Position numbers and translations under genes: made by a program. From Thermoleophilaceae bacterium (GTDB lineage Bacteria > Actinomycetota > Thermoleophilia > Solirubrobacterales > Thermoleophilaceae): a stretch of DNA of 40,098 nucleotides. Below are positions 6,591 through 29,918 of this stretch, in pieces; within the stretch, counting starts at the first letter, position 1, and every line of letters begins with the position of its first letter. A model generated the notes under the pieces. It did no database searches. It saw nothing but the letters and a program-made list of their open reading frames with translations, and was not told the origin of the DNA. Location: positions 1-40,098 of the forward strand of contig JBPCJI010000080.1 of assembly GCA_051005475.1 (NCBI GenBank). Direction: 5' to 3'.

Positions 6591-7556
6591 ATGGCGGAGC
6601 TGGAGCTGATCGCAGCGATCGAGCGGGCGCTCGGCCCCCCCGGCGAGCGTGTGGTCCGCTGGGTGGGCGACGACGCCGCCGTCGTGCGCGCGCGACCGCT
6701 TGCCGTCACCTCGATCGACGCGGCAGCCGAGGGGGTCCACTTCGAGCTGGCCACCCACTCCTTCCAGGACGCCGGGCACAAGGCCCTGGCCGCCGCCCTC
6801 TCCGACCTCGCGGCGATGGGCGCGGACACGGGGGAGGCATACGTCTCGCTCGCGCTGCCTCACGACCTGGCGGCCGCGAACGCCCTCTCGCTCGTCCAGG
6901 GAATGGCAGCCCTCGCCGAACGCACCGGCACCACGATGGCCGGTGGAGACATCGTGAGGTCCGGCGCGCTGGTGATCACCGTCTGCGTGACGGGCTGGGC
7001 CGACAGCGAGGACGAGCTGGCCGGCCGAGACGGTGCGCGTCCCGGCGACGTCGTGGGCCTCACCGGGGACCTTGGCGCCTCGGCTGCCGGCCTGCTCGTT
7101 CTAAGAGGGCGCGTGCCGGCGCTCTCACCCGCCGACGCCGAGCACCTCGCCCACCGCCACCGACGCCCGGAACCGTGCCTCGCGGCGGGCCGGGCGATCG
7201 CCGCCGCCGGGGCCACGGCGATGATCGACCTGAGCGACGGGCTCGCGACCGACGCCAGGCACCTGGCCGCAGCCAGCGGGGTGCGGCTGTCGCTAGACCT
7301 GCTTGCGGCACCGCTGGCGCCCGGCGTACGGGAGGCCGCCGAGGCGATCGGGCGTGACCCGCGCGAGCTGGCCGCAACCGGCGGTGAGGACTACGAGCTG
7401 CTCTTCACGGTCGCGCCGGAGCGGTGGGGACCCATCGTGGCCGCCGCAGGCACGCCTGTGACCCGCCTAGGCAGTGCCCTCGAGGGCCACGGCGTCGAGC
7501 TCACCGGGACGGCGGGGCGGGTCCTCGAAGAGATGCGTGGGTACGAGCACCCGTGA
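6591..7556 (+). CDS. thiL: Thiamine-monophosphate kinase
   Basis: The tracked ORF 6450..7556 starts with a 47-codon Arg/Pro-rich extension that overlaps the divergent gene. The homologous protein starts at ATG 6591 ([14 protein letters not shown]...WVGDDAAVV...[11 protein letters not shown]). It has the AIR-synthase-related fold with the GGD and DLSDGL motifs of ThiL. Confidence 0.9.
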
Positions 7557-7754
7557 GGGCGACACGGGAAGGGGCGGGTGCCCCCACGACCGGCGCAGTA
7601 TCGCCTCCGCCACGGCGTCCGCATCGACGGAGTAGTTACCGCTGTCTATCGCGATGCGTAAGCGTGTGTTCATGTCCAACGCATCGGCCGGGATCCTCAC
7701 GTAGATGAGATTTGCACGATCCCACTGGACGCCGAACCTCGGGTGCGGACCCAT
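7467..7754 (-). CDS. Small hypothetical protein with a FlgM-like (anti-sigma-28) C-terminal helix motif
   Basis: 95-aa ORF with SD AGGGAG 6 nt upstream of ATG 7754, lying 18 nt after the stop of the upstream co-oriented gene. It contains [21 protein letters not shown], which resembles the FlgM family signature (AI..G.Y.VD...IA..L). Local GC dips and rare codons occur (TTA, ATA, ACA). The last 30 codons overlap the thiL 3' end. Confidence 0.4.
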
Positions 7755-7772: not shown

Positions 7773-9548
7773 CTATCGGCGTAGGGCGCTCGAGGTGCCT
7801 CCGAGGGAGCCAGGCCCCGCATAGGAGCCCGGCCCCCTGACGGACGGCGGGTCGCCGCTCGACCCCTCCGCCTGTGGGTGCCCGGCGCTCGCGATTGCAA
7901 CCACCGACCCGAGCACCGCGGCCAGCACGCAGCCCAGGAGCGCGCTGACCACGCCTACATGCCCACCGGTGACCAGCAGGAACAGGTACCAGCTGCCGCT
8001 CAGCGGATCGAGGTGCAGCGTGATCAGCTCATAGGCCACCAGCAGGGCCGGTAACAGCAGGCCGCCCGCCACCATCAGGAGCCGCGTGCGACGGGCCGGC
8101 GGAGGATCCACCAAGGTGGCGAGGATCCACAGGTGGAGCGCCGGCGCGAGAATGAGCGCCGAGTACGGATTGACGGCCCACATTGCGAGCGTCGCCCCGC
8201 TCAGCACGAGCGCCACCGCCACGGCGGCGGCGGGCTCCGCCGGGTCAGCGAGAGCGCTGTCCGCTCGTCTGGCCAGGTGGCGCAGCCCGATCCACGCGAG
8301 CGCGACCGTCGCGGCCACCACCCCGAGCACGACGGCGGCCGGCGCGTCGAGTGGATACAGACCGGGCGCAACCGGGGCGGGGGGCGGGTCCGGCGTGGCG
8401 CCGACAACCGCCAGGAGGTGAGCCAGCCCGAGGCCGATTGCGAAGGCGAGGGCGCCGCCGCCGAGCCACCTGAGCCAGGGGAAGACCGCGCGGCGACGCC
8501 TGCGGGCCCGCGCCAACGCGTCCACGCTGGCCACCAGGGCCGGGAGGATCAGGGTCAGGCCGAGCAGCGTGAGGACCAAGCCGGGCACCACCTGGCTCAC
8601 CGCGGTGACATACGCGCGCGGGCCGTGGGCCGGGCGGCCACCCTGGTCGAGCGCCGTCACGGTGCGCAGTGTGGCCCGGCCGAGGCCGCCGAGACGGTCC
8701 TCGTCGATCGCGCCGGGCTCTGATTTCCCGGTATCCCCCACCTCACCGGCTCCGGCTATCCGGACCGTGTCATAACCGGCTTCGAGCAGAGCCCCCTGCG
8801 CGCCGATGCCGATCGGGAAGGAAAGCCGTGCCAACTGGCCGGCGGGGCCGGTCCCGGCCGCGGGACGGGAGAGCTCCTGCCTGAGTGACTCGGCCACGGT
8901 GCGCTGCAGGCCGATACCGGCGCGCGTGGCGTCGTTTGACCACGAAACGATCGAGGGGGCCTCCTTCGATCCCGCGCCCAGGTCCGACATCACGAGCACA
9001 CCATCGACCAGATCGGAGGAGTCCAGCCGCTGCGCGAGGCGCTGGGCTCCCACGTGGCCGAGCGTCGACCCATCGACCGAGGCCAGCACGAGGGTCTTGC
9101 GTGAGGGACGGCCCTCGAATACGCGCGAGAGCTCGATCAGCGCCGCCGTGTCCGCGGCGCTGCCGGCCGCGTCGGGCACCCCCGAGGCGTCGCGGGCGGC
9201 CAGCACCACGATCTGACGCCGTGACTTGCCCGCCCGTCGGCCGATCACGTTCACGAGTCGCTTCCCGTCCCGTTCGAAGCGGTCCACCTCAACGGCGAAC
9301 CCCCGCGCCGCAAGGGTCGTGCGGACGCGGCCCGCCAGAGCGCGGTCCCCCGCCGTCCCGGCACGGCGGTCGCGCGCTGCTGCCACGAGCTGGCGCGCGG
9401 TGGCCGAGGCCTGGCGGCCGTCGAAGAGCACGTCCGCCGCGAGCCCCTGTGGAAGTGGCCGGGGGCTGCTCTCGAGCGAGAACATCACAAGCACGACCGC
9501 GACCACGGCAGGCACGAAGGCCGCCCGGTAGATCCGTGGCTCGATCAC
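7773..9548 (-). CDS. Polytopic membrane protein with an N-terminal degenerate M28-peptidase-like domain
   Basis: 591 aa. An N-terminal anchor helix is followed by an M28-like extracytoplasmic domain (GTAGDRALAGRVRTTLAARGFAVEVD...NVIGRRAGKSRRQIVVLAARDASG...AADTAALIELSRVF...LVLASVDGSTLGHVGAQ). Roughly eight hydrophobic helices follow in the C-terminal half. The expected metal-ligand and catalytic residues appear substituted (see findings). Confidence 0.7.
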   Translation of the reverse strand: MIEPRIYRAAFVPAVVAVVLVMFSLESSPRPLPQGLAADVLFDGRQASATARQLVAAARDRRAGTAGDRALAGRVRTTLAARGFAVEVDRFERDGKRLVNVIGRRAGKSRRQIVVLAARDASGVPDAAGSAADTAALIELSRVFEGRPSRKTLVLASVDGSTLGHVGAQRLAQRLDSSDLVDGVLVMSDLGAGSKEAPSIVSWSNDATRAGIGLQRTVAESLRQELSRPAAGTGPAGQLARLSFPIGIGAQGALLEAGYDTVRIAGAGEVGDTGKSEPGAIDEDRLGGLGRATLRTVTALDQGGRPAHGPRAYVTAVSQVVPGLVLTLLGLTLILPALVASVDALARARRRRRAVFPWLRWLGGGALAFAIGLGLAHLLAVVGATPDPPPAPVAPGLYPLDAPAAVVLGVVAATVALAWIGLRHLARRADSALADPAEPAAAVAVALVLSGATLAMWAVNPYSALILAPALHLWILATLVDPPPARRTRLLMVAGGLLLPALLVAYELITLHLDPLSGSWYLFLLVTGGHVGVVSALLGCVLAAVLGSVVAIASAGHPQAEGSSGDPPSVRGPGSYAGPGSLGGTSSALRR

Positions 9549-9575
9549 GCTCGCCGGCTCCGCACCTCCTCAACC

Positions 9576-9581
9576 TACAAT
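9576..9581 (+). promoter_or_regulatory. Candidate -10 box TACAAT for the response-regulator operon
   Basis: TACAAT lies 37 nt upstream of ATG 9618, in the 69-nt gap between divergent genes. No convincing -35 is present. The same hexamer occurs upstream of tRNA-Lys and tatA. Confidence 0.35.
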
Positions 9582-9595
9582 CTGGAGAAGGCGCG

Positions 9596-9612
9596 GCCCA
9601 CCGCCGGTGGGC
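9596..9612. promoter_or_regulatory. Perfect 8+1+8 palindrome GCCCACCG-C-CGGTGGGC just upstream of the response-regulator start
   Basis: Read directly from the sequence. The arms are 9596-9603 and 9605-9612, and the palindrome ends 5 nt before ATG 9618. It could be an operator or a 5'-leader hairpin. Confidence 0.5.
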
Positions 9613-9617
9613 GCTTT

Positions 9618-10319
9618 ATGGAACACCCCACTCCCCGCATCCTCCTGGTAGACGACGAAGAGTCGGTTCAGAAGCTGCTCGCCTTCCCCCTGCGCAAGGA
9701 CGGCTACGAGGTCGTCGCCGCACTGGACGGTCCCGAGGCGCTCGAGCGGCTGCGAGACGATGACATCGATTTGGTCGTGCTCGACCTCATGCTTCCGGGA
9801 GTGGACGGCTTCGAGGTCTGCCGGCGGGTGCGCGCGAAGAGCTCGGTGCCGATCATCATGCTCACCGCGCGCACCGAGGAGATCGACAAGGTGCTCGGCC
9901 TCGAGCTCGGCGCAGACGACTACATCACCAAGCCGTTCTCGGTGCGTGAGTTTCGCAGCCGCGTAAAAGCCGTCCTGCGCCGAGCCGAGCGCACCCGCGG
10001 CGAGGACCCGGGCGAGGAGCCGCTCGAGGACGGGGACCTCCGGATCGACTTTGACAAGCGCAACGTCACGATGGCGGGCGAGCCGGCGGGGTTGACCTAC
10101 GTGGAGTTCGAGATCCTTGCCGCTCTGGCGCGCAACCCGGGCCGCGTCTACAACCGCATGGTGCTTCTTGAACGGGTTTGGGGCGACGCCTCATACCGCG
10201 ACCCCCGCACCGTGGATGTGCACATCCGGCATCTGCGGGAGAAGCTCGAGCGCGACCCGAAGCACCCCGAGCTGATCCTCACCCTGCGCGGGGTCGGCTA
10301 CCGCTACCGGGACCGATGA
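9618..10319 (+). CDS. OmpR/PhoB-family response regulator (MprA/MtrA-like)
   Basis: The receiver domain has ILLVDDEES...DLVVLDLMLPGVDG...PIIMLTAR...GADDYITKPF. The winged-helix output domain has LTYVEFEILAALARNPGRVYNRMVLLERVWG...RTVDVHIRHLREKL. Confidence 0.95.
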   Translation: MEHPTPRILLVDDEESVQKLLAFPLRKDGYEVVAALDGPEALERLRDDDIDLVVLDLMLPGVDGFEVCRRVRAKSSVPIIMLTARTEEIDKVLGLELGADDYITKPFSVREFRSRVKAVLRRAERTRGEDPGEEPLEDGDLRIDFDKRNVTMAGEPAGLTYVEFEILAALARNPGRVYNRMVLLERVWGDASYRDPRTVDVHIRHLREKLERDPKHPELILTLRGVGYRYRDR

Positions 10320-11748
10320 TCGCCCGCCCGCACCTGCGCTCGCTGCGCAACAAGCTCGTGTTGCTGTTCCTCGGCATCACGGCCGCCGCCTTCGCCGTCA
10401 TGTACCTGGCCGTCGTACCCCAGCTCGAGGCCAACCTCGAGCAACAGAAGCTTGCCGACCTGGAGGGTGTGGCGACGGGCGCCAAGACCACGCTCGAGGA
10501 CCTGATGGGACGCCAGGAGATCTCCGCGGTCGAGCTCGACCGGCGGGTGCGAGCGGTGGCCGACGCGGCCGGGGCGCGGATCACGCTGCTCGGCGTGCAG
10601 CAGTCCCGCCAGCCCGGCTCTGACGCGCCCTTCTACGTCATCACCGACACCCGCGAAGAGCGCGCGGTGCCCCAGAACCCCGGACTCGCGAGGGAGGCCG
10701 CGCGCACCAGGGCCCCGGCCCGCGGTCACGGCGCGCTCGATGGCGAGGAACTGGGCCAGGTGGCCCAGCCGCTCTCCTCCCGGGGAGAGAACAACTGGAT
10801 CGCCCTCTACTCGCAGAGCCTGGAAGACGTGACCGACACGGTGTCGCTTGTCCGCAAGCGGTTGCTGCTGGCCACCACCGCCGCGCTGCTGCTCGCCCTG
10901 GTCGGAGGGTATTTCGTGGCCCAGGCGCTCGCTCGCCGTGTGAGAAGGCTCGAGCAGGGGGCCGAGCAGGTGGCGGCGGGGAACTTCATCGAGCCGCTGC
11001 CGGTCGACTCCGAAGACGAGCTCGGTCAGCTCACCCGCACGTTCAACGACATGCAGAGGCAGTTGCGGCGAGTCGACCTGGCGCGCAAGGAGTTCGTGGC
11101 CACTGCCTCACACGAGCTGCGCACACCCATCTTCTCGCTCGGCGGCTTCGTGGAGCTGCTGCGAGACGAGGAGCTCGACGAGGCCACCAGGCGGGAGTTC
11201 CTCGACACGATGGCCGAACAGGTGGAGCGGCTTCAGAAGCTGGCCGTCGACCTGCTCGATCTCTCGCGCCTGGATGCCGGATCGGTCCGGTTCGAGCGGG
11301 AGCCGGTCGACCTCTCGGAGGTGGCGCGCGCGGTGACGAGCGAGTTCAGGCCGGTGGTCACCGCGCAGCGGCCAGCCGTGGCGCTGCACCTTCCGGATCC
11401 TGGCGTGGAGGCGAGCTGTGACCGAGAGCGGGTTGCCCAGATCATCCGTATTCTGCTCGACAATGCCCTTACGCACACCCCGCAGGGCACCCAGGTCACG
11501 GTGACCACCCGGCGCGCGAATGGAGCCGCGGAGCTGACCGTCGTGGACGAAGGACCGGGCCTCCCGGAGGACACCCGGATATTCGAGCGCTTCACCACCG
11601 GTGACGGCACCCGCGGTGCCGGACTCGGGCTTGCGATCGCACGGGAGCTGGCTGAGCACATGGAGGGACAGATCCGCGCTGAGTCCCTCCCGGTCGGCGC
11701 TGTCTTCACTCTGAAGCTCCCCGCGGATGACCGGGGGCCGGACGCCTG

Positions 11749-11749
<1 letters not shown>
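10316..11749 (+). CDS. Sensor histidine kinase (two TM helices, HAMP, HisKA, HATPase_c; MprB-like)
   Basis: The tracked ORF starts at 10178, but the homologous start is ATG 10316, overlapping the regulator stop (ATGA). TM1 is LVLLFLGITAAAFAVMYLAVV and TM2 is LLLATTAALLLALVGGYFVAQAL. A HAMP domain follows, then the H-box ATASHELRTPI, the N-box LLDNALTHT and the G-boxes VVDEGPGL and GAGLGLAIAREL. Confidence 0.9.
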
Positions 11750-12960
<1,211 letters not shown>

Positions 12961-13056
12961 CGGTGTCGGTGGCGGCCGGCGCCGGCGCCGGCGAAGCCTT
13001 CCACCGCGCCATCGTCACCGGGCCCGACGACGGGATCTGGCGGCTTTCCGGGTAAC

Positions 13057-13428
13057 GTGCCCGCCGTGGCTGCCGATAGTCGCGATGTATCCCTCACCGT
13101 TCCGGCGAAGCCGGGGTACCTGGTGCTCGCCCGGCTGGCACTCGCGGCGGTGTGCCGGCTCACGCCGCTCGAGCCGGCGGAGGTCGCCGATCTGAAGCTG
13201 GCCGTCACCGAAGCGGCCTCGGAGCTGATCGAGGCCGGCGGCGACGAGGACACGGTGGACTTCGCCTTCCGGCTGCATCCCGACCGGCTCGCGATCGAGC
13301 TCTGCGGTCCGGCGGGCGCCACGCCCCCCGACGAACAGGAGCTCAGCCGCGCCATCATCGAGGCCACCGTCGACCGAGCTGAGTTCTTTGCCGGCCGGAC
13401 GGTCCTCGCCAAGCAGCTGGAAGCCTGA
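13057..13428 (+). CDS. Short RsbW/SpoIIAB-like anti-sigma-factor kinase homologue, apparently catalytically degenerate
   Basis: 123 aa with a GTG start. VSLTVPAKPGYLVLARLALAAVCRLTPLEPAEVADLKLAVTEAASELIEAG...VDFAFRLHPDRLAIEL aligns by eye with the RsbW N-terminal half ([51 protein letters not shown]). The N-box Asn is replaced (TEAASEL) and no DxGxG or GxGL boxes follow. The stop overlaps the treT start (TGATG). Confidence 0.6.
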   Translation: MPAVAADSRDVSLTVPAKPGYLVLARLALAAVCRLTPLEPAEVADLKLAVTEAASELIEAGGDEDTVDFAFRLHPDRLAIELCGPAGATPPDEQELSRAIIEATVDRAEFFAGRTVLAKQLEA

Positions 13429-14660
13429 TGCTGCAGCCGGTTCTCGTCGGACACAAGAGCCTCGCGGACTACACCCACCTCGTGGGCAAGCCGCTGATCG
13501 AGGAGGTGCGTCAACTCGCAGGGGAGCTCGAGGGCCTCCGCGTGCTCCACCTCTCGGCGACTGCGTTCGGTGGCGGCGTGGCCGAGATCCTCTACACGCT
13601 GGTGCCGCTGATGCGTGACGTGGGCATCGAGACCGAGTGGCAGGTGATGCTCGGCCGCGAGGAGTTCTACAACACCACGAAGATCCTCCACAACGCGCTT
13701 CAGGGCAACCCGGACGGTCTCTCACCGGAGCAGTGGCAGATCTTCGCCAAGTACAACGAGATGAACGCCCAGGAGATAGAGGGCGGCTGGGACGTGATCA
13801 TCGTGCACGATCCCCAGCCCGCCGCCATCCACCAGCTCGTGCCCGAGAAGGCGCGCACGTGGATCTGGCGCTGCCACATCGATCTCTCGACCCCCAACCC
13901 GACCGCGATCGAGCGGCTCGTGCCCTTCGTACGCTCCTACGACGGGGCGATCTTCCACCTGGAGCAGTACGTGCCGAGCGGGCTGGACGGTACGCCGATC
14001 CACATCGTGCCTCCGGCGATCGACCCGCTCTCCCCCAAGAACATGGCCTTCTCCCCGGAGGACGCCGCCTACGTCTGCGACCAGTTCGGGATCGATGTGG
14101 ACCGGCCCATGCTCTGCCAGGTCTCGCGCTTCGACCCCTGGAAGGATCCGATGGGGGTGATCGACGCCTACCGTCAGGTGGCCGAAGCGGTGCCCGCCGC
14201 GCAGCTGGCCCTCGTCGGTTCGATGGCAACGGACGATCCGGAGGGGTGGGAGTTCTTCAACCAGACGATGGCCTACGCAGATGGGAACCCCGACATCCAC
14301 ATCCTCAACAACCTCAACAACGTCGGTGCGATCGAGGTGAACGCGTTCCAGTCCCAGGCGGATGTCGTGATCCAGAAGTCCACGCGTGAGGGTTTCGGCC
14401 TCACCGTTTCCGAGGCGCTCTGGAAGGCGCGCCCCTTCATCGGCGGGGACGTCGGGGGCATCCCGCTGCAGGTGGAGGACGGCAAGACCGGTTACCTCGT
14501 CTCCTCAGCCGCCGAGTGTGCCGAGCGCGCGGTGGGGATACTCGAGGATCCGGACCTCGGCAAGCGGCTGGGGCGGGCAGGCAAGGAGCATGTCCGGCAG
14601 CGATTCCTGACGCCGCGGCTGCTGCGTGACTGGCTGAAGATCTTCCGCGCCAAGGCATGA
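13428..14660 (+). CDS. treT: Trehalose synthase, TreT type (GT4 trehalose glycosyltransferring synthase)
   Basis: 410 aa. The blocks FGGGVAEILYTLVPL, FYNTTKILHNALQG, WRCHIDLSTPN, VSRFDPWKDP, MATDDPEGWEFF and STREGFGLTVSEALWK match, from memory, the conserved blocks of archaeal/Thermotogae TreT proteins of about 410 aa. They go beyond a generic GT4 match. Confidence 0.8.
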   Translation: MLQPVLVGHKSLADYTHLVGKPLIEEVRQLAGELEGLRVLHLSATAFGGGVAEILYTLVPLMRDVGIETEWQVMLGREEFYNTTKILHNALQGNPDGLSPEQWQIFAKYNEMNAQEIEGGWDVIIVHDPQPAAIHQLVPEKARTWIWRCHIDLSTPNPTAIERLVPFVRSYDGAIFHLEQYVPSGLDGTPIHIVPPAIDPLSPKNMAFSPEDAAYVCDQFGIDVDRPMLCQVSRFDPWKDPMGVIDAYRQVAEAVPAAQLALVGSMATDDPEGWEFFNQTMAYADGNPDIHILNNLNNVGAIEVNAFQSQADVVIQKSTREGFGLTVSEALWKARPFIGGDVGGIPLQVEDGKTGYLVSSAAECAERAVGILEDPDLGKRLGRAGKEHVRQRFLTPRLLRDWLKIFRAKA

Positions 14661-16135
14661 GCGGCGACGTCGAGCTCGTCCTGGTATCGAACCGCGGGCC
14701 CGCGACCTTCGAGCGCACGGAGGACGGCGGGTTCGAGCCCCACCGGGGCGGCGGTGGCCTCGTGACCGCCCTCACCGGCCTGGTCCACCACCGCGACGCC
14801 CTCTGGATCGCATCCACCCTGTCAGACGTGGACGCAGAGGCCGCCGCCCAGCACGGCGGTCGCAGCTTCGAGTGCGAGCTCGAGGACGTGACGTACCGGA
14901 TCCGCCTCGTGGAGTCCGACTCCGACGCGTACGAGCGCTTCTACAACGTCGTGGCCAACCCGATGCTGTGGTTCATCCAGCACTACCTCTGGGACCTCTC
15001 CAACGCGCCCGACATCCGCAAGTGGGAGGTCGACTCCTACGAGGATGGCTACCGCGTCGTCAACAAGGACTTGGCGGCGGCCGTGCTAGAGGAGATCGAG
15101 GACGTTGAAGACGCGGTGGTGATGCTCCACGACTACCACCTCTACGCGGCCCCGAAGTTCATCCGCGAGGCCCGTCCCGACGTGTTCCTGCACCACTTCG
15201 TGCACATTCCCTGGACCCAGCCCGACGCCTGGCGGGTGCTACCGCGCGACATCCGCGAGGACATCTTCGAGGGGGTCCTGGCCAACGACATCATCGCCTT
15301 CCACACACGTGCCTACCGCCGCAACTTCATGCACTGCTGCCGCGAGCTGTTCGACCTCGACGTGGACGAGAAGGCAGGCATCGTCCACTTCGATGGGCGC
15401 GAGATCTGGGTGCGCGCGTACCCGCTGCCGATCTCCGCCGAGACGTTCCAGCGCAACGCCCAGCGCCCGGCGGTGCAGGAGTACGAGGGCGAGATCCTGC
15501 GCCGGCGCCGGGAGCACCTGATCCTCCGGGTGGACCGCGCGGACCTCTCCAAGAACATCCTCCGCGGCTTCACCGCGTTCGACATGTTTCTCGATCAGCA
15601 CCAGGACTTCCTCGAGCAGGTCACCTTCATCGCCCACCTCATCCCGTCGCGGCAGGACATAGCGGAGTACGCCGAGTACCTCGAGCGCATCGAGGCCCTC
15701 GTGGCCGTCATCAACCACCGTCACGGCACCACGGACTGGATGCCGATCGACCTGCGGCTGCGCGAGAACCTCGACGAGGCGATCGCCGCCTACAAGCATT
15801 ACGACCTGCTGATGGTGAACGCCATGTTCGACGGCATGAACCTGATCGCCAAGGAGGGGCCGCTGGTCAACGAGCGCGACGGGGTATCCCTGCTGAGCGA
15901 GAACACGGGTGCCCACGAGGAGCTTGCGGAGTTCGCCCTGTCGGTCAACCCCTTCGACGTCCAGGAGCAGGCGGAGGCCATCCACCGCGCTCTCACCATG
16001 TCCCCGGACGAGCGTTCCTGGCGGGCCCAGGGACTGAAGCGTGTGGTCACCGCGCGCGATCCGGGCGACTGGGTCGACGACCAGCTCGCCGACATCGAAG
16101 CAAAGCGCAGCGGGGGGACGCCCGGCGGCGGATAG
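14657..16135 (+). CDS. otsA: Alpha,alpha-trehalose-phosphate synthase (GT20)
   Basis: 492 aa with the ATG overlapping the treT stop (ATGA). GT20 features are LVLVSNRGP, GGGGLVTAL, ERFYNVVANPMLWFIQHYLWD, VMLHDYHLY, ILRVDRADLSKNI and VNAMFDGMNLIAKE. Confidence 0.9.
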   Translation: MSGDVELVLVSNRGPATFERTEDGGFEPHRGGGGLVTALTGLVHHRDALWIASTLSDVDAEAAAQHGGRSFECELEDVTYRIRLVESDSDAYERFYNVVANPMLWFIQHYLWDLSNAPDIRKWEVDSYEDGYRVVNKDLAAAVLEEIEDVEDAVVMLHDYHLYAAPKFIREARPDVFLHHFVHIPWTQPDAWRVLPRDIREDIFEGVLANDIIAFHTRAYRRNFMHCCRELFDLDVDEKAGIVHFDGREIWVRAYPLPISAETFQRNAQRPAVQEYEGEILRRRREHLILRVDRADLSKNILRGFTAFDMFLDQHQDFLEQVTFIAHLIPSRQDIAEYAEYLERIEALVAVINHRHGTTDWMPIDLRLRENLDEAIAAYKHYDLLMVNAMFDGMNLIAKEGPLVNERDGVSLLSENTGAHEELAEFALSVNPFDVQEQAEAIHRALTMSPDERSWRAQGLKRVVTARDPGDWVDDQLADIEAKRSGGTPGGG

Positions 16136-19171: not shown

Positions 19172-20551
19172 GTGGCCGTCCTAGCCCCGCCGCCGGGCGC
19201 CGCCGGCGTGCCGCCGCAGAACGAGGAGGCTGAGGTCGCGGTCCTCGGCGCGATCCTGCTCACCGAGCAGGCACTGGACCAGATCCTCGTCGAGCTCAAG
19301 CTGGGACCGGACGATTTCTACCGGCCGCGCCACCAGCTCATCTTCCGCTCGATGCTCCGCCTGAAGGAGAAGGCGGAGCCCGAGGCCGTTGACGCCATCA
19401 CCGTCTGCGATGACCTCACGCGGGAGGGCAGGATCGCAGAGGTGGGCGGGCCGGCCTACGTGCACTCCCTCCCCACCATGGTTCCCGCAGTCGGAGCCGT
19501 GCGGGACTACGCCAAGATCGTGCGCGACCACGCGATCCTGCGCGGCCTGCTCGCCACCGCACGCGAGATCCAGGAGCGGGTGGCCACCGAGAGCGGCGAC
19601 CCCCGCCTGCTGGTCGAGCAGGCCGAGCAGGCCATCTTCCGGGCCGGTCACGACCATGAGGCGAAGGCGCTGCGGCCGATCGAGGAGATACTCCACGAGG
19701 AACTGGACAAGCTGGAGCGGCTCTCGAAGGAGGGGCAGTCGCTCACCGGCACGCCATCCGGCTTCCGGGACCTCGACGAGATCAACGGGGGCTTCCAGCC
19801 CGGGAACCTGATCGTCCTGGCGGCGAGGCCGGCGATGGGCAAGTCCTGTCTCGCCACGTGCATCGCCGAGAACGCGGCGGTCGACCACGGGAAGGCCGTC
19901 GCCCTCTTCTCCCTGGAGATGTCGGAGGGCGAGCTCGGACAGCGCCTGATCGCCTCGCGCGCGAAGCTGAGCGGGGAGTCCCTGCGAAAGGGACGGGTGA
20001 AGGCGGAGCGCTGGCCGAAGGTCCTGCAGGCCACCGACAAGCTTGCGCCGGCGCCGCTCTGGATCGACGATTCGAGCGACATCGGGGTGCTGGAGCTACG
20101 CGCGAAGGCGCGCAGGCTCCACCAGCGCCACCCGCTCGGCCTGCTGATCGTGGACTACCTGCAGCTGATCCGCCCGGAGGACCCGCGCGACGGCCGTGTC
20201 GAGCAGGTCGGCAAGATGAGCCGCGGGTTGAAGATCCTGGCTCGCGAGCTCCACATTCCGGTGATCGCCATCTCGCAGCTATCGCGTGCGGTCGAGGCGC
20301 GCCCGGACAAGCGCCCGCTCATGTCGGACCTGCGGGAGAGCGGCAACATCGAGCAGGACTCCGACCTCGTGATGTTCGTGTACCGCGACGAGTACTACAA
20401 CTCCGACACCGACAAGCCCGGCGTGGCCGAGGTGATCATCGGCAAGCACCGCAACGGGCCTGTCGGCCATGTCGAGCTCGCCTTCCTCGACCGCTATCCG
20501 AAGTTCGCGAGCATCGCGCGCGAGCGGGTCGCCGAAACCGCGGTGAGGTGA
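19172..20551 (+). CDS. dnaB: Replicative DNA helicase
   Basis: 459 aa. The N-terminal region has PPQNEEAEVAVLGAILL. Walker A is AARPAMGKSCLA. Further blocks are LIVDYLQLI and ISQLSRAVE. No intein is present. Confidence 0.95.
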   Translation: MAVLAPPPGAAGVPPQNEEAEVAVLGAILLTEQALDQILVELKLGPDDFYRPRHQLIFRSMLRLKEKAEPEAVDAITVCDDLTREGRIAEVGGPAYVHSLPTMVPAVGAVRDYAKIVRDHAILRGLLATAREIQERVATESGDPRLLVEQAEQAIFRAGHDHEAKALRPIEEILHEELDKLERLSKEGQSLTGTPSGFRDLDEINGGFQPGNLIVLAARPAMGKSCLATCIAENAAVDHGKAVALFSLEMSEGELGQRLIASRAKLSGESLRKGRVKAERWPKVLQATDKLAPAPLWIDDSSDIGVLELRAKARRLHQRHPLGLLIVDYLQLIRPEDPRDGRVEQVGKMSRGLKILARELHIPVIAISQLSRAVEARPDKRPLMSDLRESGNIEQDSDLVMFVYRDEYYNSDTDKPGVAEVIIGKHRNGPVGHVELAFLDRYPKFASIARERVAETAVR

Positions 20552-21285
20552 TGCTGCGTCCAGTGCCCGAACCGGGCGGAGATGGCGACCCCGGCGGGCG
20601 CCGACCCTGCGTCCTGGGCATCTGCGAGGGCAACGGGTGGGTCCTCCGGGAGGACAACCAGTCCGAGCCCTGCGAGTGTCAGGAGCGCATGGTCAGCAGG
20701 GCGGCCAGCCGGGGAATGGGGACGGGTATCCCCAAGCGCTACCGTGGAGTCTCGTTCGAGCGCAAGCCGGTCTGCGACCTCGACCCATTCGTCCTGCGCC
20801 ACGTCCGCACCTTCGTCGAGCAGGTCGATCAGCAGCTGGGCGCCGGGAAGGGCCTCTGGTTCACCGGCGACGTGGGCACGGGGAAGACCTCCCTCGCGAT
20901 GCTGGTCTCGCAGGCGGCCGAGCGGAAGGGCCGCTCCGTGGCGATCTACCCCGTCACGCGCCTGCTCGCCGAGATCAAGAACACCTACGACCGGGAGACC
21001 GGCGGCTCGTACATGTCCCTCTTCGAGAAGCTGGTGTCGGTCGACCTGCTGCACCTCGACGACCTCGGCGCGGAGAAGCGGACGGATTGGGTCCTCCAGG
21101 AGCTGTACTCGATCGTCAACGAGCGCTGGCAGGACGAGCGCTCGATCGTGGTCACCACGAACATCACCGACCTCGACGAGCTGCGGAACGAGATCGGATC
21201 GAGGACGGTCTCGCGGCTCGTCGAGATATGCGGCGATCCCATTCCCATCATGGGGCCGGATCTCCGGCTGACGTCCGCGGTCTAG
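20551..21285 (+). CDS. DnaC/DnaI/IstB-like AAA+ ATPase, putative helicase loader
   Basis: ATG 20551 overlaps the dnaB stop (TGATG). Walker A is FTGDVGTGKTSLA, Walker B is LLHLDDLGAEK and sensor I is VVTTN. The N-terminal 45 aa carry four Cys (CVLGIC...CEC). The ORF lies inside the tracked frame 19858..21285, whose upstream part is an out-of-frame shadow of dnaB. Confidence 0.8.
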   Translation: MLRPVPEPGGDGDPGGRRPCVLGICEGNGWVLREDNQSEPCECQERMVSRAASRGMGTGIPKRYRGVSFERKPVCDLDPFVLRHVRTFVEQVDQQLGAGKGLWFTGDVGTGKTSLAMLVSQAAERKGRSVAIYPVTRLLAEIKNTYDRETGGSYMSLFEKLVSVDLLHLDDLGAEKRTDWVLQELYSIVNERWQDERSIVVTTNITDLDELRNEIGSRTVSRLVEICGDPIPIMGPDLRLTSAV

Positions 21286-29404: not shown

Positions 29405-29477
29405 TGGGCCGTGAAGGACTTGAACCTTCAACCTTGAGATTAAGAGTCTCCTGCTCTACCAGTTGAGCTAACGGCCC
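29405..29477 (-). tRNA. tRNA-Lys (anticodon CTT)
   Basis: Folded by hand on the minus strand: acceptor GGGCCGT/ACGGCCC, D arm GCTC-AACTGGTA-GAGC, anticodon arm GGAGA-CTCTTAA-TCTCA (one G-A mismatch at 27:43), variable loop AGGTT, T arm GAAGG-TTCAAGT-CCTTC, discriminator A. CCA is not encoded. Confidence 0.9.
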
Positions 29478-29519: not shown

Positions 29520-29918
29520 TTACCCCGTGCCGGGCTCGAGGGATCCGAGCGCCGCCTCACGCGTGGGGTGGATCGGGAAGACGCGATCGAGGCCCGTGAT
29601 CTCGAAGATCTTCGTGATGTTCTCATCCGTGCACACGAGCGTCAGCGAGCCGCCGGCCGGGCGCAGGCGCTTGACTCCCCCCACGAGGACTCCCAGCGTG
29701 GTGGAGTCGATGAAGGTGGCCTGCGTAAGGTCCACGACGATCTCCTTCTTGCCGCCGTCGATCAGCTGGACCATCCGCTCCTTGAACTCGGGCGCGGTGT
29801 AGAGATCGATCTCCCCGCCGAGCTCGATGACATGGGTCCGGTCGTCGATTTCCTCGTCCTGGATGTGGAAGTTCAACTCGTTCTCCTGGTCGTAGCGACT
29901 CGGCCGCGAGGGCGGCAC
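29520..29918 (-). CDS. STAS-domain anti-sigma-factor antagonist (SpoIIAA/RsbV-like)
   Basis: 132 aa. HVIELGGEIDLYTAPEFKERMVQLIDGGKKEIVVDLTQATFIDSTTLGVLVGGVKRL contains the conserved phosphorylatable Ser context (DST). No kinase or phosphatase partner is adjacent. Confidence 0.85.
   Translation of the reverse strand: MPPSRPSRYDQENELNFHIQDEEIDDRTHVIELGGEIDLYTAPEFKERMVQLIDGGKKEIVVDLTQATFIDSTTLGVLVGGVKRLRPAGGSLTLVCTDENITKIFEITGLDRVFPIHPTREAALGSLEPGTG

Follow-up and report, generated by a model that had tools for sequence, protein, structure and literature searches.

Three RsbW-type proteins with different roles have been described in Mycobacterium smegmatis: RsbW1 binds the sigma factor SigF and leaves RsfB unphosphorylated, RsbW2 alone acts as RsfB kinase, and RsbW3, itself a member of the SigF regulon, has no kinase activity and acts by binding RsbW1 (PMC7693655). 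In the same species, MSMEG_6514/6515, which are trehalose synthase genes, depend on SigF and have the promoter sequence GTGT-N16-GGGTA (PMC4694148). In this work, we analyzed an RsbW-like gene within a 40,098-nucleotide stretch of DNA from a Thermoleophilaceae bacterium (assembly GCA_051005475.1, contig JBPCJI010000080.1, positions 1 to 40,098 of the forward strand; the whole stretch is called the window). Its product, which public annotation lists as 'hypothetical protein' or 'anti-sigma regulatory factor', belongs to a distinct clade of lid-shortened, very probably kinase-dead RsbW proteins encoded in soil Thermoleophilaceae at the head of a trehalose operon; kinase-negative RsbW proteins as such were already known.

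13066-13428, plus strand: coding sequence of the predicted RsbW-like pseudokinase (PF13581, full-length hhalign, AlphaFold, Foldseek, and dN/dS, the ratio of nonsynonymous to synonymous substitution rates)

The open reading frame (ORF) at 13057-13428(+) encodes 123 amino acids, with a GC content at third codon positions (GC3) of 0.86 in a window of 70% GC; its codon-position GC is typical of genuine genes, and comparison with two relatives gave a dN/dS of about 0.17, that is, purifying selection. The RsbW-like ORF is a genuine functional gene. The GTG at 13066, from which a protein of 120 amino acids would be made, is the likelier start since it is conserved among relatives and an in-frame TAA stands upstream of it in loci L009-L011; residue numbers given here count from the start at 13057 (123-amino-acid version).

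The original prediction, made from the sequence alone, had recognised a homologue of RsbW and SpoIIAB, and the searches support this. The protein matches PF13581 (HATPase_c_2) with 33 bits, above the gathering score of 27.4 (E 6.8e-8), gives weak matches to the NCBIfam models of RsbW, RsbA and SpoIIAB, and finds its best PDB sequence matches in RsbW of Bacillus subtilis and RsbW/UsfX of Mycobacterium tuberculosis; in the profile search against the PDB, RsbW was recovered with an E of 1.6e-10 and UsfX aligned across residues 4-115. The protein had also been taken for the truncated N-terminal half of a kinase, ending before the G boxes, a description that has to be abandoned on both counts. The hhalign comparison of a 37-member clade profile with 13 motif-intact relatives covers residues 5-123 (probability 99.9%, E 3e-33) and places IELCGPAG opposite the G1 box VEVADHGEGF, ELSRAII opposite GLGIAII of the G2 box, and the clade signature ELSRAIIEATVD opposite the G2 box and its helix, GLGIAIIKALSDE. 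Furthermore, the AlphaFold model built from 82 sequences, with a predicted local distance difference test score (pLDDT) of 93.4, has the complete β1-α1-α2-β2-β3-α3-β4-β5 topology and supersedes an earlier model from 20 close sequences (pLDDT 68.7). Foldseek ranks 1-19 are all RsbW, UsfX or SpoIIAB, at query-normalised TM-scores of 0.73-0.79 and root mean square deviations (rmsd) of 2.2-4.4 Å, and ranks 20-21 are the RsbW domain of Rv1364c. The ATP lid, the segment between β3 and α3, was rightly noticed as defective but is not wholly absent: it spans 12 positions versus 26 in the RsbW of Gaiellaceae and 30 in that of B. subtilis, which makes it about 14 residues shorter in an otherwise complete domain. 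Taken together, these results describe a whole RsbW-type domain whose catalytic motifs are mutated in place and whose lid is shortened.

A search of 5.8 billion proteins returned 2023 homologues and, as the best 120 of these are mostly 118-142 amino acids long, the length of the protein is conserved. These homologue lengths, together with the dN/dS and the full-length alignment, rule out a frameshifted kinase, a possibility that the original prediction had considered, and a truncated one, as well as a pseudogene or chance ORF. Four longer database entries (P0151, P0168, P0190 and P0205) are read-through artefacts of error-prone contigs. An exact look-up of the window protein in the assembly index returned no record.

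The motifs were compared among 82 representatives taken from a search of 1.84 billion cluster representatives, 37 of which, with at least 39% identity, make up the ELSRAIIEATVD clade. None of the 37 has DxGxG at the G1 box or a glycine-rich G2 box (GGLG/GMG in motif-intact relatives). In the window protein, CGPAG (C83-G87) aligns to DHGEG of G1 and ELSR (95-98) to GLGI of G2, and the N-box Asn (N53 of RsbW) is replaced by Glu56, as had been seen from the start; across the clade this position is occupied by D, E, A, G, Y, L, C, R and other residues, with Asn in a single member, P0142. The next-best matches (40% identity or less) bear TEACSNSVRHAY, DDGEGF and GGLGIAII. With its three ATP-binding boxes (N, G1 and G2) and the greater part of the lid lost, the protein can very likely neither bind ATP nor act as a kinase. 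A different reading would have it alive, binding or hydrolysing nucleotide in an unusual way, an acidic residue taking over from Asn as ligand of the metal, given that the window protein and its close relatives have Glu or Asp at the N-box position and that Glu52 is invariant. We hold this to be the least probable of the explanations considered here, since the Asn position is unconstrained clade-wide, neither the G1 Asp nor the G2 glycines remain, and so much of the lid is missing.

The binding surface fared differently from the catalytic apparatus. In the crystallised RsbV-RsbW complex, RsbW dimerises through β1 and α1, its Arg23, Asp42, Lys44/Ser48, Glu49 and Tyr118 hydrogen-bond RsbV, and Glu49 touches the phosphorylatable Ser56 of RsbV (PMC7340262). 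R23, D42, K44, S48, E49 and Tyr118 of RsbW correspond to R26, D45, K47, T51, E52 and A99 of the window protein, so that five of the six contacts are kept. R26, A49 and E52 are invariant in 82/82 sequences and L13, P16, A17, L24, L27, D45, L46, K47 and A53 nearly so; within the clade, R26, K47 and E52 are invariant, D45 is nearly invariant, and T51 is the consensus, with Ser in some members. As judged from these alignments, the catalytic apparatus is gone and the surface for STAS contact and β1/α1 dimerisation is kept, which bears out the initial impression of a dead kinase with its partner-binding face preserved.

The RsbW-like gene is followed by two genes of trehalose synthesis:

13428-14660, plus strand: TreT-like trehalose synthase of family GT4 (PF21269 TreT_GT1, E 3.6e-51, plus Glycos_transf_1, PF00534)
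14657-16135, plus strand: OtsA-family (GT20) trehalose-6-phosphate synthase (PF00982, E 4.2e-108)

Both neighbours score under the NCBIfam equivalog cut-offs (432.7 bits to NF041139 for TreT, 301.8 bits to TIGR02400 for OtsA), so their exact substrates are not fixed. The stop codon of the RsbW-like gene overlaps the ATG of TreT in a TGATG at 13426-13430, and the TreT stop overlaps the OtsA start in an ATGA at 14657-14660; rpsF lies downstream of the trehalose genes. The translational coupling originally proposed thus stands for the window and does not extend to most relatives: of 92 loci, 13 have the TGATG overlap, 72 a spacer of 7-19 nucleotides and 7 a longer one. Among 80 further metagenome loci, 78 had sufficient downstream DNA, and in these TreT follows the RsbW-like gene directly in 77 and OtsA does so, without TreT, in one (L082). 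The linkage to trehalose genes persists down to 40-46% identity (L012, L014 and L016) and is firm in every relative examined. Adjacency is therefore universal in the loci examined and the overlap is a subclade trait. In two loci, repeat-rich insertions split the RsbW-like gene from TreT (L091, 761-944, 184 nucleotides; L097, 5358-5484, 127 nucleotides), that of L097 containing repeated caaaggggggcaccgcccccc units.

Such constant proximity, with TreT or OtsA adjacent in 78/78 loci, the TreT start overlapped in some, and no sigma or STAS gene alongside, would suit a pseudokinase acting as scaffold or allosteric subunit of TreT and/or OtsA, gene coupling keeping the ratio fixed. We consider this improbable. 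The neighbour varies by lineage, mostly TreT but OtsA alone in L082 and in Gaiellaceae; the family domains span the full length of TreT and OtsA, and Pfam found none beyond the glycosyltransferase folds; the conserved residues of the RsbW-like protein are those of the STAS and dimer interfaces; orthologues with all kinase motifs point to an origin in phospho-signalling; and no precedent was found in the literature. The suggestion in the original prediction that the protein tethers or regulates the trehalose enzymes thus gathered no supporting evidence.

Upstream of the RsbW-like gene, the window carries three genes of a conserved 5' context:

9618-10319, plus strand: OmpR-type response regulator (synteny in L001 and L005-L012; Response_reg and Trans_reg_C by Pfam in L001)
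10316-11749, plus strand: HAMP-HisKA-HATPase_c sensor histidine kinase, part of the conserved 5' context
11749-12960, plus strand: HtrA/PepD-like serine protease with PDZ domain and lipobox LPIVGC (Trypsin_2 E 1.5e-34, PDZ_2, synteny), directly 5' of the RsbW-like gene

Scans of genomes and metagenomes assign the window to Thermoleophilaceae, and the order response regulator, histidine kinase, HtrA, RsbW-like protein, TreT, OtsA and S6 is kept in L001 and L005-L012. In the Gaiellaceae loci L099-L102 and in L105, a locus from a metagenome-assembled genome, the order is M28 peptidase (minus strand), response regulator, histidine kinase, HtrA, RsbW, OtsA, MoaC and MoaB, and the RsbW encoded there has 147-150 amino acids and intact N, G1 and G2 motifs. 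Since the Gaiellaceae share the same locus, the window protein is the positional orthologue of a motif-intact RsbW. L098 has TreT after a motif-intact RsbW, and L015, on an error-prone contig, has the same HtrA, RsbW, OtsA, MoaC order. Judging by the conserved synteny, the linkage of RsbW and otsA most likely predates the split of Thermoleophilaceae and Gaiellaceae, and the ancestor at this locus was probably a genuine kinase that lost its motifs in place. The divergent M28-like peptidase gene, together with the response regulator, histidine kinase and HtrA genes (window 7773-12960; L099 and L105), is common to both families. The arrangement of the latter three genes in the window resembles mprA-mprB-pepD, and the MoaC and MoaB genes that come after OtsA in Gaiellaceae recall mprA-mprB-pepD-moaB2 of M. 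tuberculosis.

About one third of the relatives carry a further gene, of the inositol-monophosphatase (IMPase) family (PF00459, DPIDGT), between HtrA and the RsbW-like gene, for example:

L008, 5061-5981: IMPase-family gene (PF00459)
L012, 4919-5926: IMPase-family gene (PF00459)

This gene was lost in the window, where a remnant is left at 12961-13047, and in L001, L005, L010 and L011, and it is intact in L009, a close relative. The deletions in L010 and L011 differ in extent, and each spares at least the last 22 nucleotides. Since no OtsB gene adjoins OtsA, this phosphatase of the IMPase family might take part in the trehalose pathway.

Between HtrA and the RsbW-like gene lies a short conserved element:

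13048-13058, plus strand: CnGGGTAnnnT motif, CCGGGTAACGT in the window, candidate -10 of a SigB/SigF-type promoter

When 86 unique upstream sequences were aligned on this element, C-n-G-G-G-T-A-n-n-n-T were the only strongly conserved positions, and the same was found for the 56 without IMPase coding overlap; as the loci are phylogenetically related, these sequences are not independent observations. Within the 40-kb window, CNGGGTANNNT has a single match, which is this element, and so does GGGTANNNT-N7-RTG, with 0.12 matches expected by chance. The conserved GTG, 13066 in the window, lies 9-10 nucleotides past the GGGTAN hexamer in 70 of the 86 sequences, and the element survives independent deletions of the upstream IMPase gene. 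The mycobacterial consensus is GGWWT-N16-17-GGGTAY and the rsbW3 promoter reads GTTT-N17-GGGTAA (PMC7693655); in promoters of the SigB homologues of Streptomyces coelicolor, the three G's and the A at position 5 hardly vary, a weak GNNT makes up the -35, the spacer has 12-15 nucleotides and transcription starts 7-11 nucleotides downstream (PMC8346170). The element matches the -10 of these actinobacterial SigB/SigF-type promoters and is a candidate for one. Gaiellaceae have GGTTAA/G-N14-15-GGGTAG right after the HtrA stop and one Thermoleophilaceae subclade has GGTTC-N15-16-GGGTAG; the pattern G[GT]TTNN-N12-15-GGGTA[AGT] has 21 matches in the 1.2 Mb of retrieved loci, 17 of them just 5' of an RsbW-like gene. 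A consistent -35 was not found in the main clade, where there is a weak GNNT peak 11-14 nucleotides upstream, plus GTTC-N16 in one subclade. The element also fits the TANNNT geometry of leaderless mRNAs, and the transcript probably starts at or beside the GTG, as a leaderless mRNA. A Shine-Dalgarno reading of the motif is unlikely, as the variants TAAGTT and TAACCT keep TANNNT and have no Shine-Dalgarno-like sequence. A scan for sigma-70-type promoters found none.

Two further observations concern similar elements. In many loci (e.g. L030-L036), GGGTAGTCT-N7-8-GTG stands 5' of the TreT start with the TAG stop of the RsbW-like gene inside it; its likeness to the element in front of the RsbW-like gene suggests that TreT transcripts of those lineages may have a separate leaderless start. 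In L103 (3932-4423) and L104 (2095-2586), a different motif-less HATPase_c_2 protein of 140 amino acids, P0266, is encoded after GTTTAG-N15-GGGTAG. We considered P0266-type proteins as UsfX-like relatives and set them aside, since their genes are followed by those of a LytTR response regulator, a DUF4212 protein and an SSF transporter and are uninformative for this clade; P0266 is another orphan context for degenerate RsbW-like genes.

The upstream genes and the element bear together on another explanation, namely that the RsbW-like gene is the fourth gene of a response regulator-histidine kinase-HtrA operon, and its product an output module that modulates the histidine kinase or the response regulator. 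The order of these genes and RsbW is kept across Thermoleophilaceae and Gaiellaceae, the HtrA stop precedes the RsbW-like start by about 40 nucleotides in L011, and no terminator was found by a scan between HtrA and the RsbW-like gene, the hairpin of the 97-nucleotide spacer being no better than shuffles (z -0.25), so that a role at the level of transcription is possible. Taken as a whole, this explanation seems very doubtful to us, since the promoter-like motif persists after independent upstream deletions and HtrA is a lipoprotein acting outside the cytoplasm. Besides, no RsbW-fold protein is known to us to act on a two-component system.

As to the partner, the Pfam scan of the window ORFs found no sigma factor or PP2C gene, and the absence of sigma, STAS and PP2C genes next to the RsbW-like gene, already remarked in the original prediction, stood. 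The sole STAS gene found in the window lies 16 kb away:

29520-29918, minus strand: RsbV/SpoIIAA-type STAS protein with phosphorylatable Ser in FIDSTTLG (PF01740, E 1.6e-22)

Its product matches RsbV in the PDB (6m36_B, E 7.8e-15) with the Ser aligned, and it is a candidate partner, non-adjacent, of the RsbW-like protein. No kinase, phosphatase or sigma genes were found near it, and no STAS gene was found in the related loci. The tRNA at 29405-29477, the only known RNA family in the window, immediately follows the STAS gene, and tatC is nearby. The presence of this STAS protein, of RsbV type and with the phosphorylatable Ser, makes it likely that the genome contains, at another place, a partner-switching circuit that includes a real kinase; and as a conserved candidate SigB/SigF-type -10 motif precedes the RsbW-like gene, membership in a stress sigma regulon is suggested rather than control of the enzymes.

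We therefore favour, with no more than middling confidence, a binding-only partner-switching protein that is co-expressed with treT-otsA, sequesters a SigB/SigF-type sigma factor and forms part of the stress regulon. The protein would work by binding alone, most probably holding a sigma factor encoded elsewhere, from which an unphosphorylated STAS antagonist such as the 29520-29918 product would displace it, and the kinase role would fall to a different RsbW paralogue, much as RsbW1 and RsbW2 divide these tasks in M. smegmatis. Its gene would be the first of an rsbW-like/treT/otsA unit under the GGGTA-type -10, so that one and the same stress sigma factor would induce trehalose synthesis and the production of its own binding-only regulator, giving a feedback that would be negative if the sigma factor is bound and positive if the protein behaves like RsbW3. 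That second behaviour amounts to an explanation of its own: the protein would bind no sigma factor and would instead inactivate an anti-sigma RsbW paralogue by forming a heterodimer with it, or soak up the STAS antagonist, and its stress-induced synthesis would tune the sigma response up or down. RsbW3 offers a parallel in being kinase-negative, unlinked to a sigma gene and preceded by a GGGTAA/G-type element, and the dimerisation elements β1 and α1 are the most conserved part of the RsbW-like protein. No RsbW paralogue is known from the available sequence, however, and the intact kinase motifs of the Gaiellaceae orthologue are uninformative here; we regard this explanation as unlikely, although it is not separable from the favoured one by sequence alone. 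A bolder idea, to which we assign only a slim chance, is that the pseudokinase couples partner switching to metabolism, with TreT/OtsA or a metabolite of the trehalose pathway in the remnant pocket competing with the sigma factor or the STAS protein. If true, the status of trehalose synthesis would feed back on the stress sigma regulon, and the protein would represent a so far undescribed kind of moonlighting anti-sigma pseudokinase.

Several points weigh against a binding-only regulator of a stress sigma factor. First, no sigma gene was found, either among the window ORFs scanned or in the retrieved loci of the clade; a motif-intact relative, P0207, is encoded just 3' of a sigma factor gene (L013) and is the only sigma-adjacent one. 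In addition, synteny inside one bacterial class is partly inherited and is by itself no proof of functional coupling. Regarding the protein, the RsbV contact Tyr118 of RsbW has become Ala99, and the Glu or Asp at the Asn position in the window and close relatives could in principle bind metal. Regarding the promoter, the window offers no convincing -35, only the -10-like element; the weak GNNT of most main-clade loci is some 1-3 nucleotides nearer than the usual spacing; TANNNT would equally fit a housekeeping -10; and in about one third of the loci the element overlaps the IMPase stop codon.

Two other ORFs of the window deserve mention. The small ORF at 7467-7754(-) has a weak match to FlgM, the anti-sigma-28 factor (E 7e-5, under the gathering score), and a counterpart is called in L001. 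The ORF at 20548-21285(+), which starts at the stop of dnaB (19172-20551), encodes a DnaC/IstB-like AAA+ protein with the Walker A motif GDVGTGKTS; its counterpart in L001 is annotated PF01695 IstB_IS21, and the ORF may encode a helicase loader beside dnaB, here in an actinobacterium.

Thermoleophilia are abundant actinobacteria of soils and drylands, almost uncultured, for which trehalose is likely a desiccation protectant. In this class, the locus ties trehalose synthesis to a partner-switching protein and, probably, to a stress sigma factor of SigB/SigF type, and the CnGGGTAnnnT element may serve as a handle for predicting the stress regulon from metagenomes. It is also a clean natural example of a signalling kinase decayed to a binding-only pseudokinase, as the protein appears to be, at an unchanged chromosomal position: since Gaiellaceae keep a motif-intact RsbW and Thermoleophilaceae a lid-shortened copy, the functions that survive the loss of catalysis can be compared directly. 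The literature on TreT/OtsA with anti-sigma factors and on kinase-less RsbW in Actinobacteria held no description of this arrangement, so its novelty, as first claimed, stands for the arrangement but not for the lack of kinase activity, which was known from RsbW1 and RsbW3 (PMC7693655) and, judging by its sequence, from UsfX.

Within the RsbW-type proteins, the Gaiellaceae orthologues (P0235 and P0366, annotated 'serine/threonine-protein kinase RsbW' or 'ATP-binding protein') are the closest by position: they share about 41% identity with the window protein across the N-terminal two-thirds (tblastn; profile-profile E 3e-33), but keep the N box TEACTNSVRHAY, G1 DHGEGF, G2 GGLGIAII and the full lid, and their locus has no TreT and a leader of about 90 nucleotides. 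RsbW and SpoIIAB of B. subtilis have the same GHKL fold and topology, and their RsbV-contact residues are conserved in the window protein; they bind ATP, phosphorylate STAS proteins and are encoded with a sigma factor and a STAS protein, in all of which the window protein would differ. The RsbW domain of Rv1364c (PDB 3ke6) matches it in structure (TM 0.63-0.67) but is part of a multidomain RsbU-RsbW-STAS protein, whereas here a stand-alone gene lies in a trehalose operon; that domain is reported to have lost kinase activity (Sachdeva 2008, as cited in PMC7693655). UsfX (Rv3287c; PDB 8ih8 and 8jzt) has the same fold (TM 0.74-0.79, rmsd 2.6-3.3 Å), its profile aligns end to end with no lid-sized gap, and it also lacks the N-box Asn (AVDEVCTRLIRSA), which makes it kinase-negative by sequence inference. 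However, UsfX/RsbW1 (MSMEG_1803) is co-transcribed with sigF, whereas the window gene stands at the head of treT-otsA, with no sigma gene in its vicinity; identity between them is 22-26%, and the window clade has its own ELSRAIIEATVD signature. RsbW3 (MSMEG_1787) is kinase-negative, does not lie beside the sigma gene, has a GGGTAA-type promoter and acts purely by binding; the window gene is likewise unlinked to a sigma gene and preceded by a candidate -10 of this type, and its product is predicted to be kinase-negative and to work by binding. RsbW3 binds RsbW1 rather than SigF, as the window protein may also do, and has no linkage to trehalose genes. Altogether, the locus extends the mycobacterial picture of UsfX, RsbW1 and RsbW3 to another actinobacterial class and leaves current understanding of these proteins in place.

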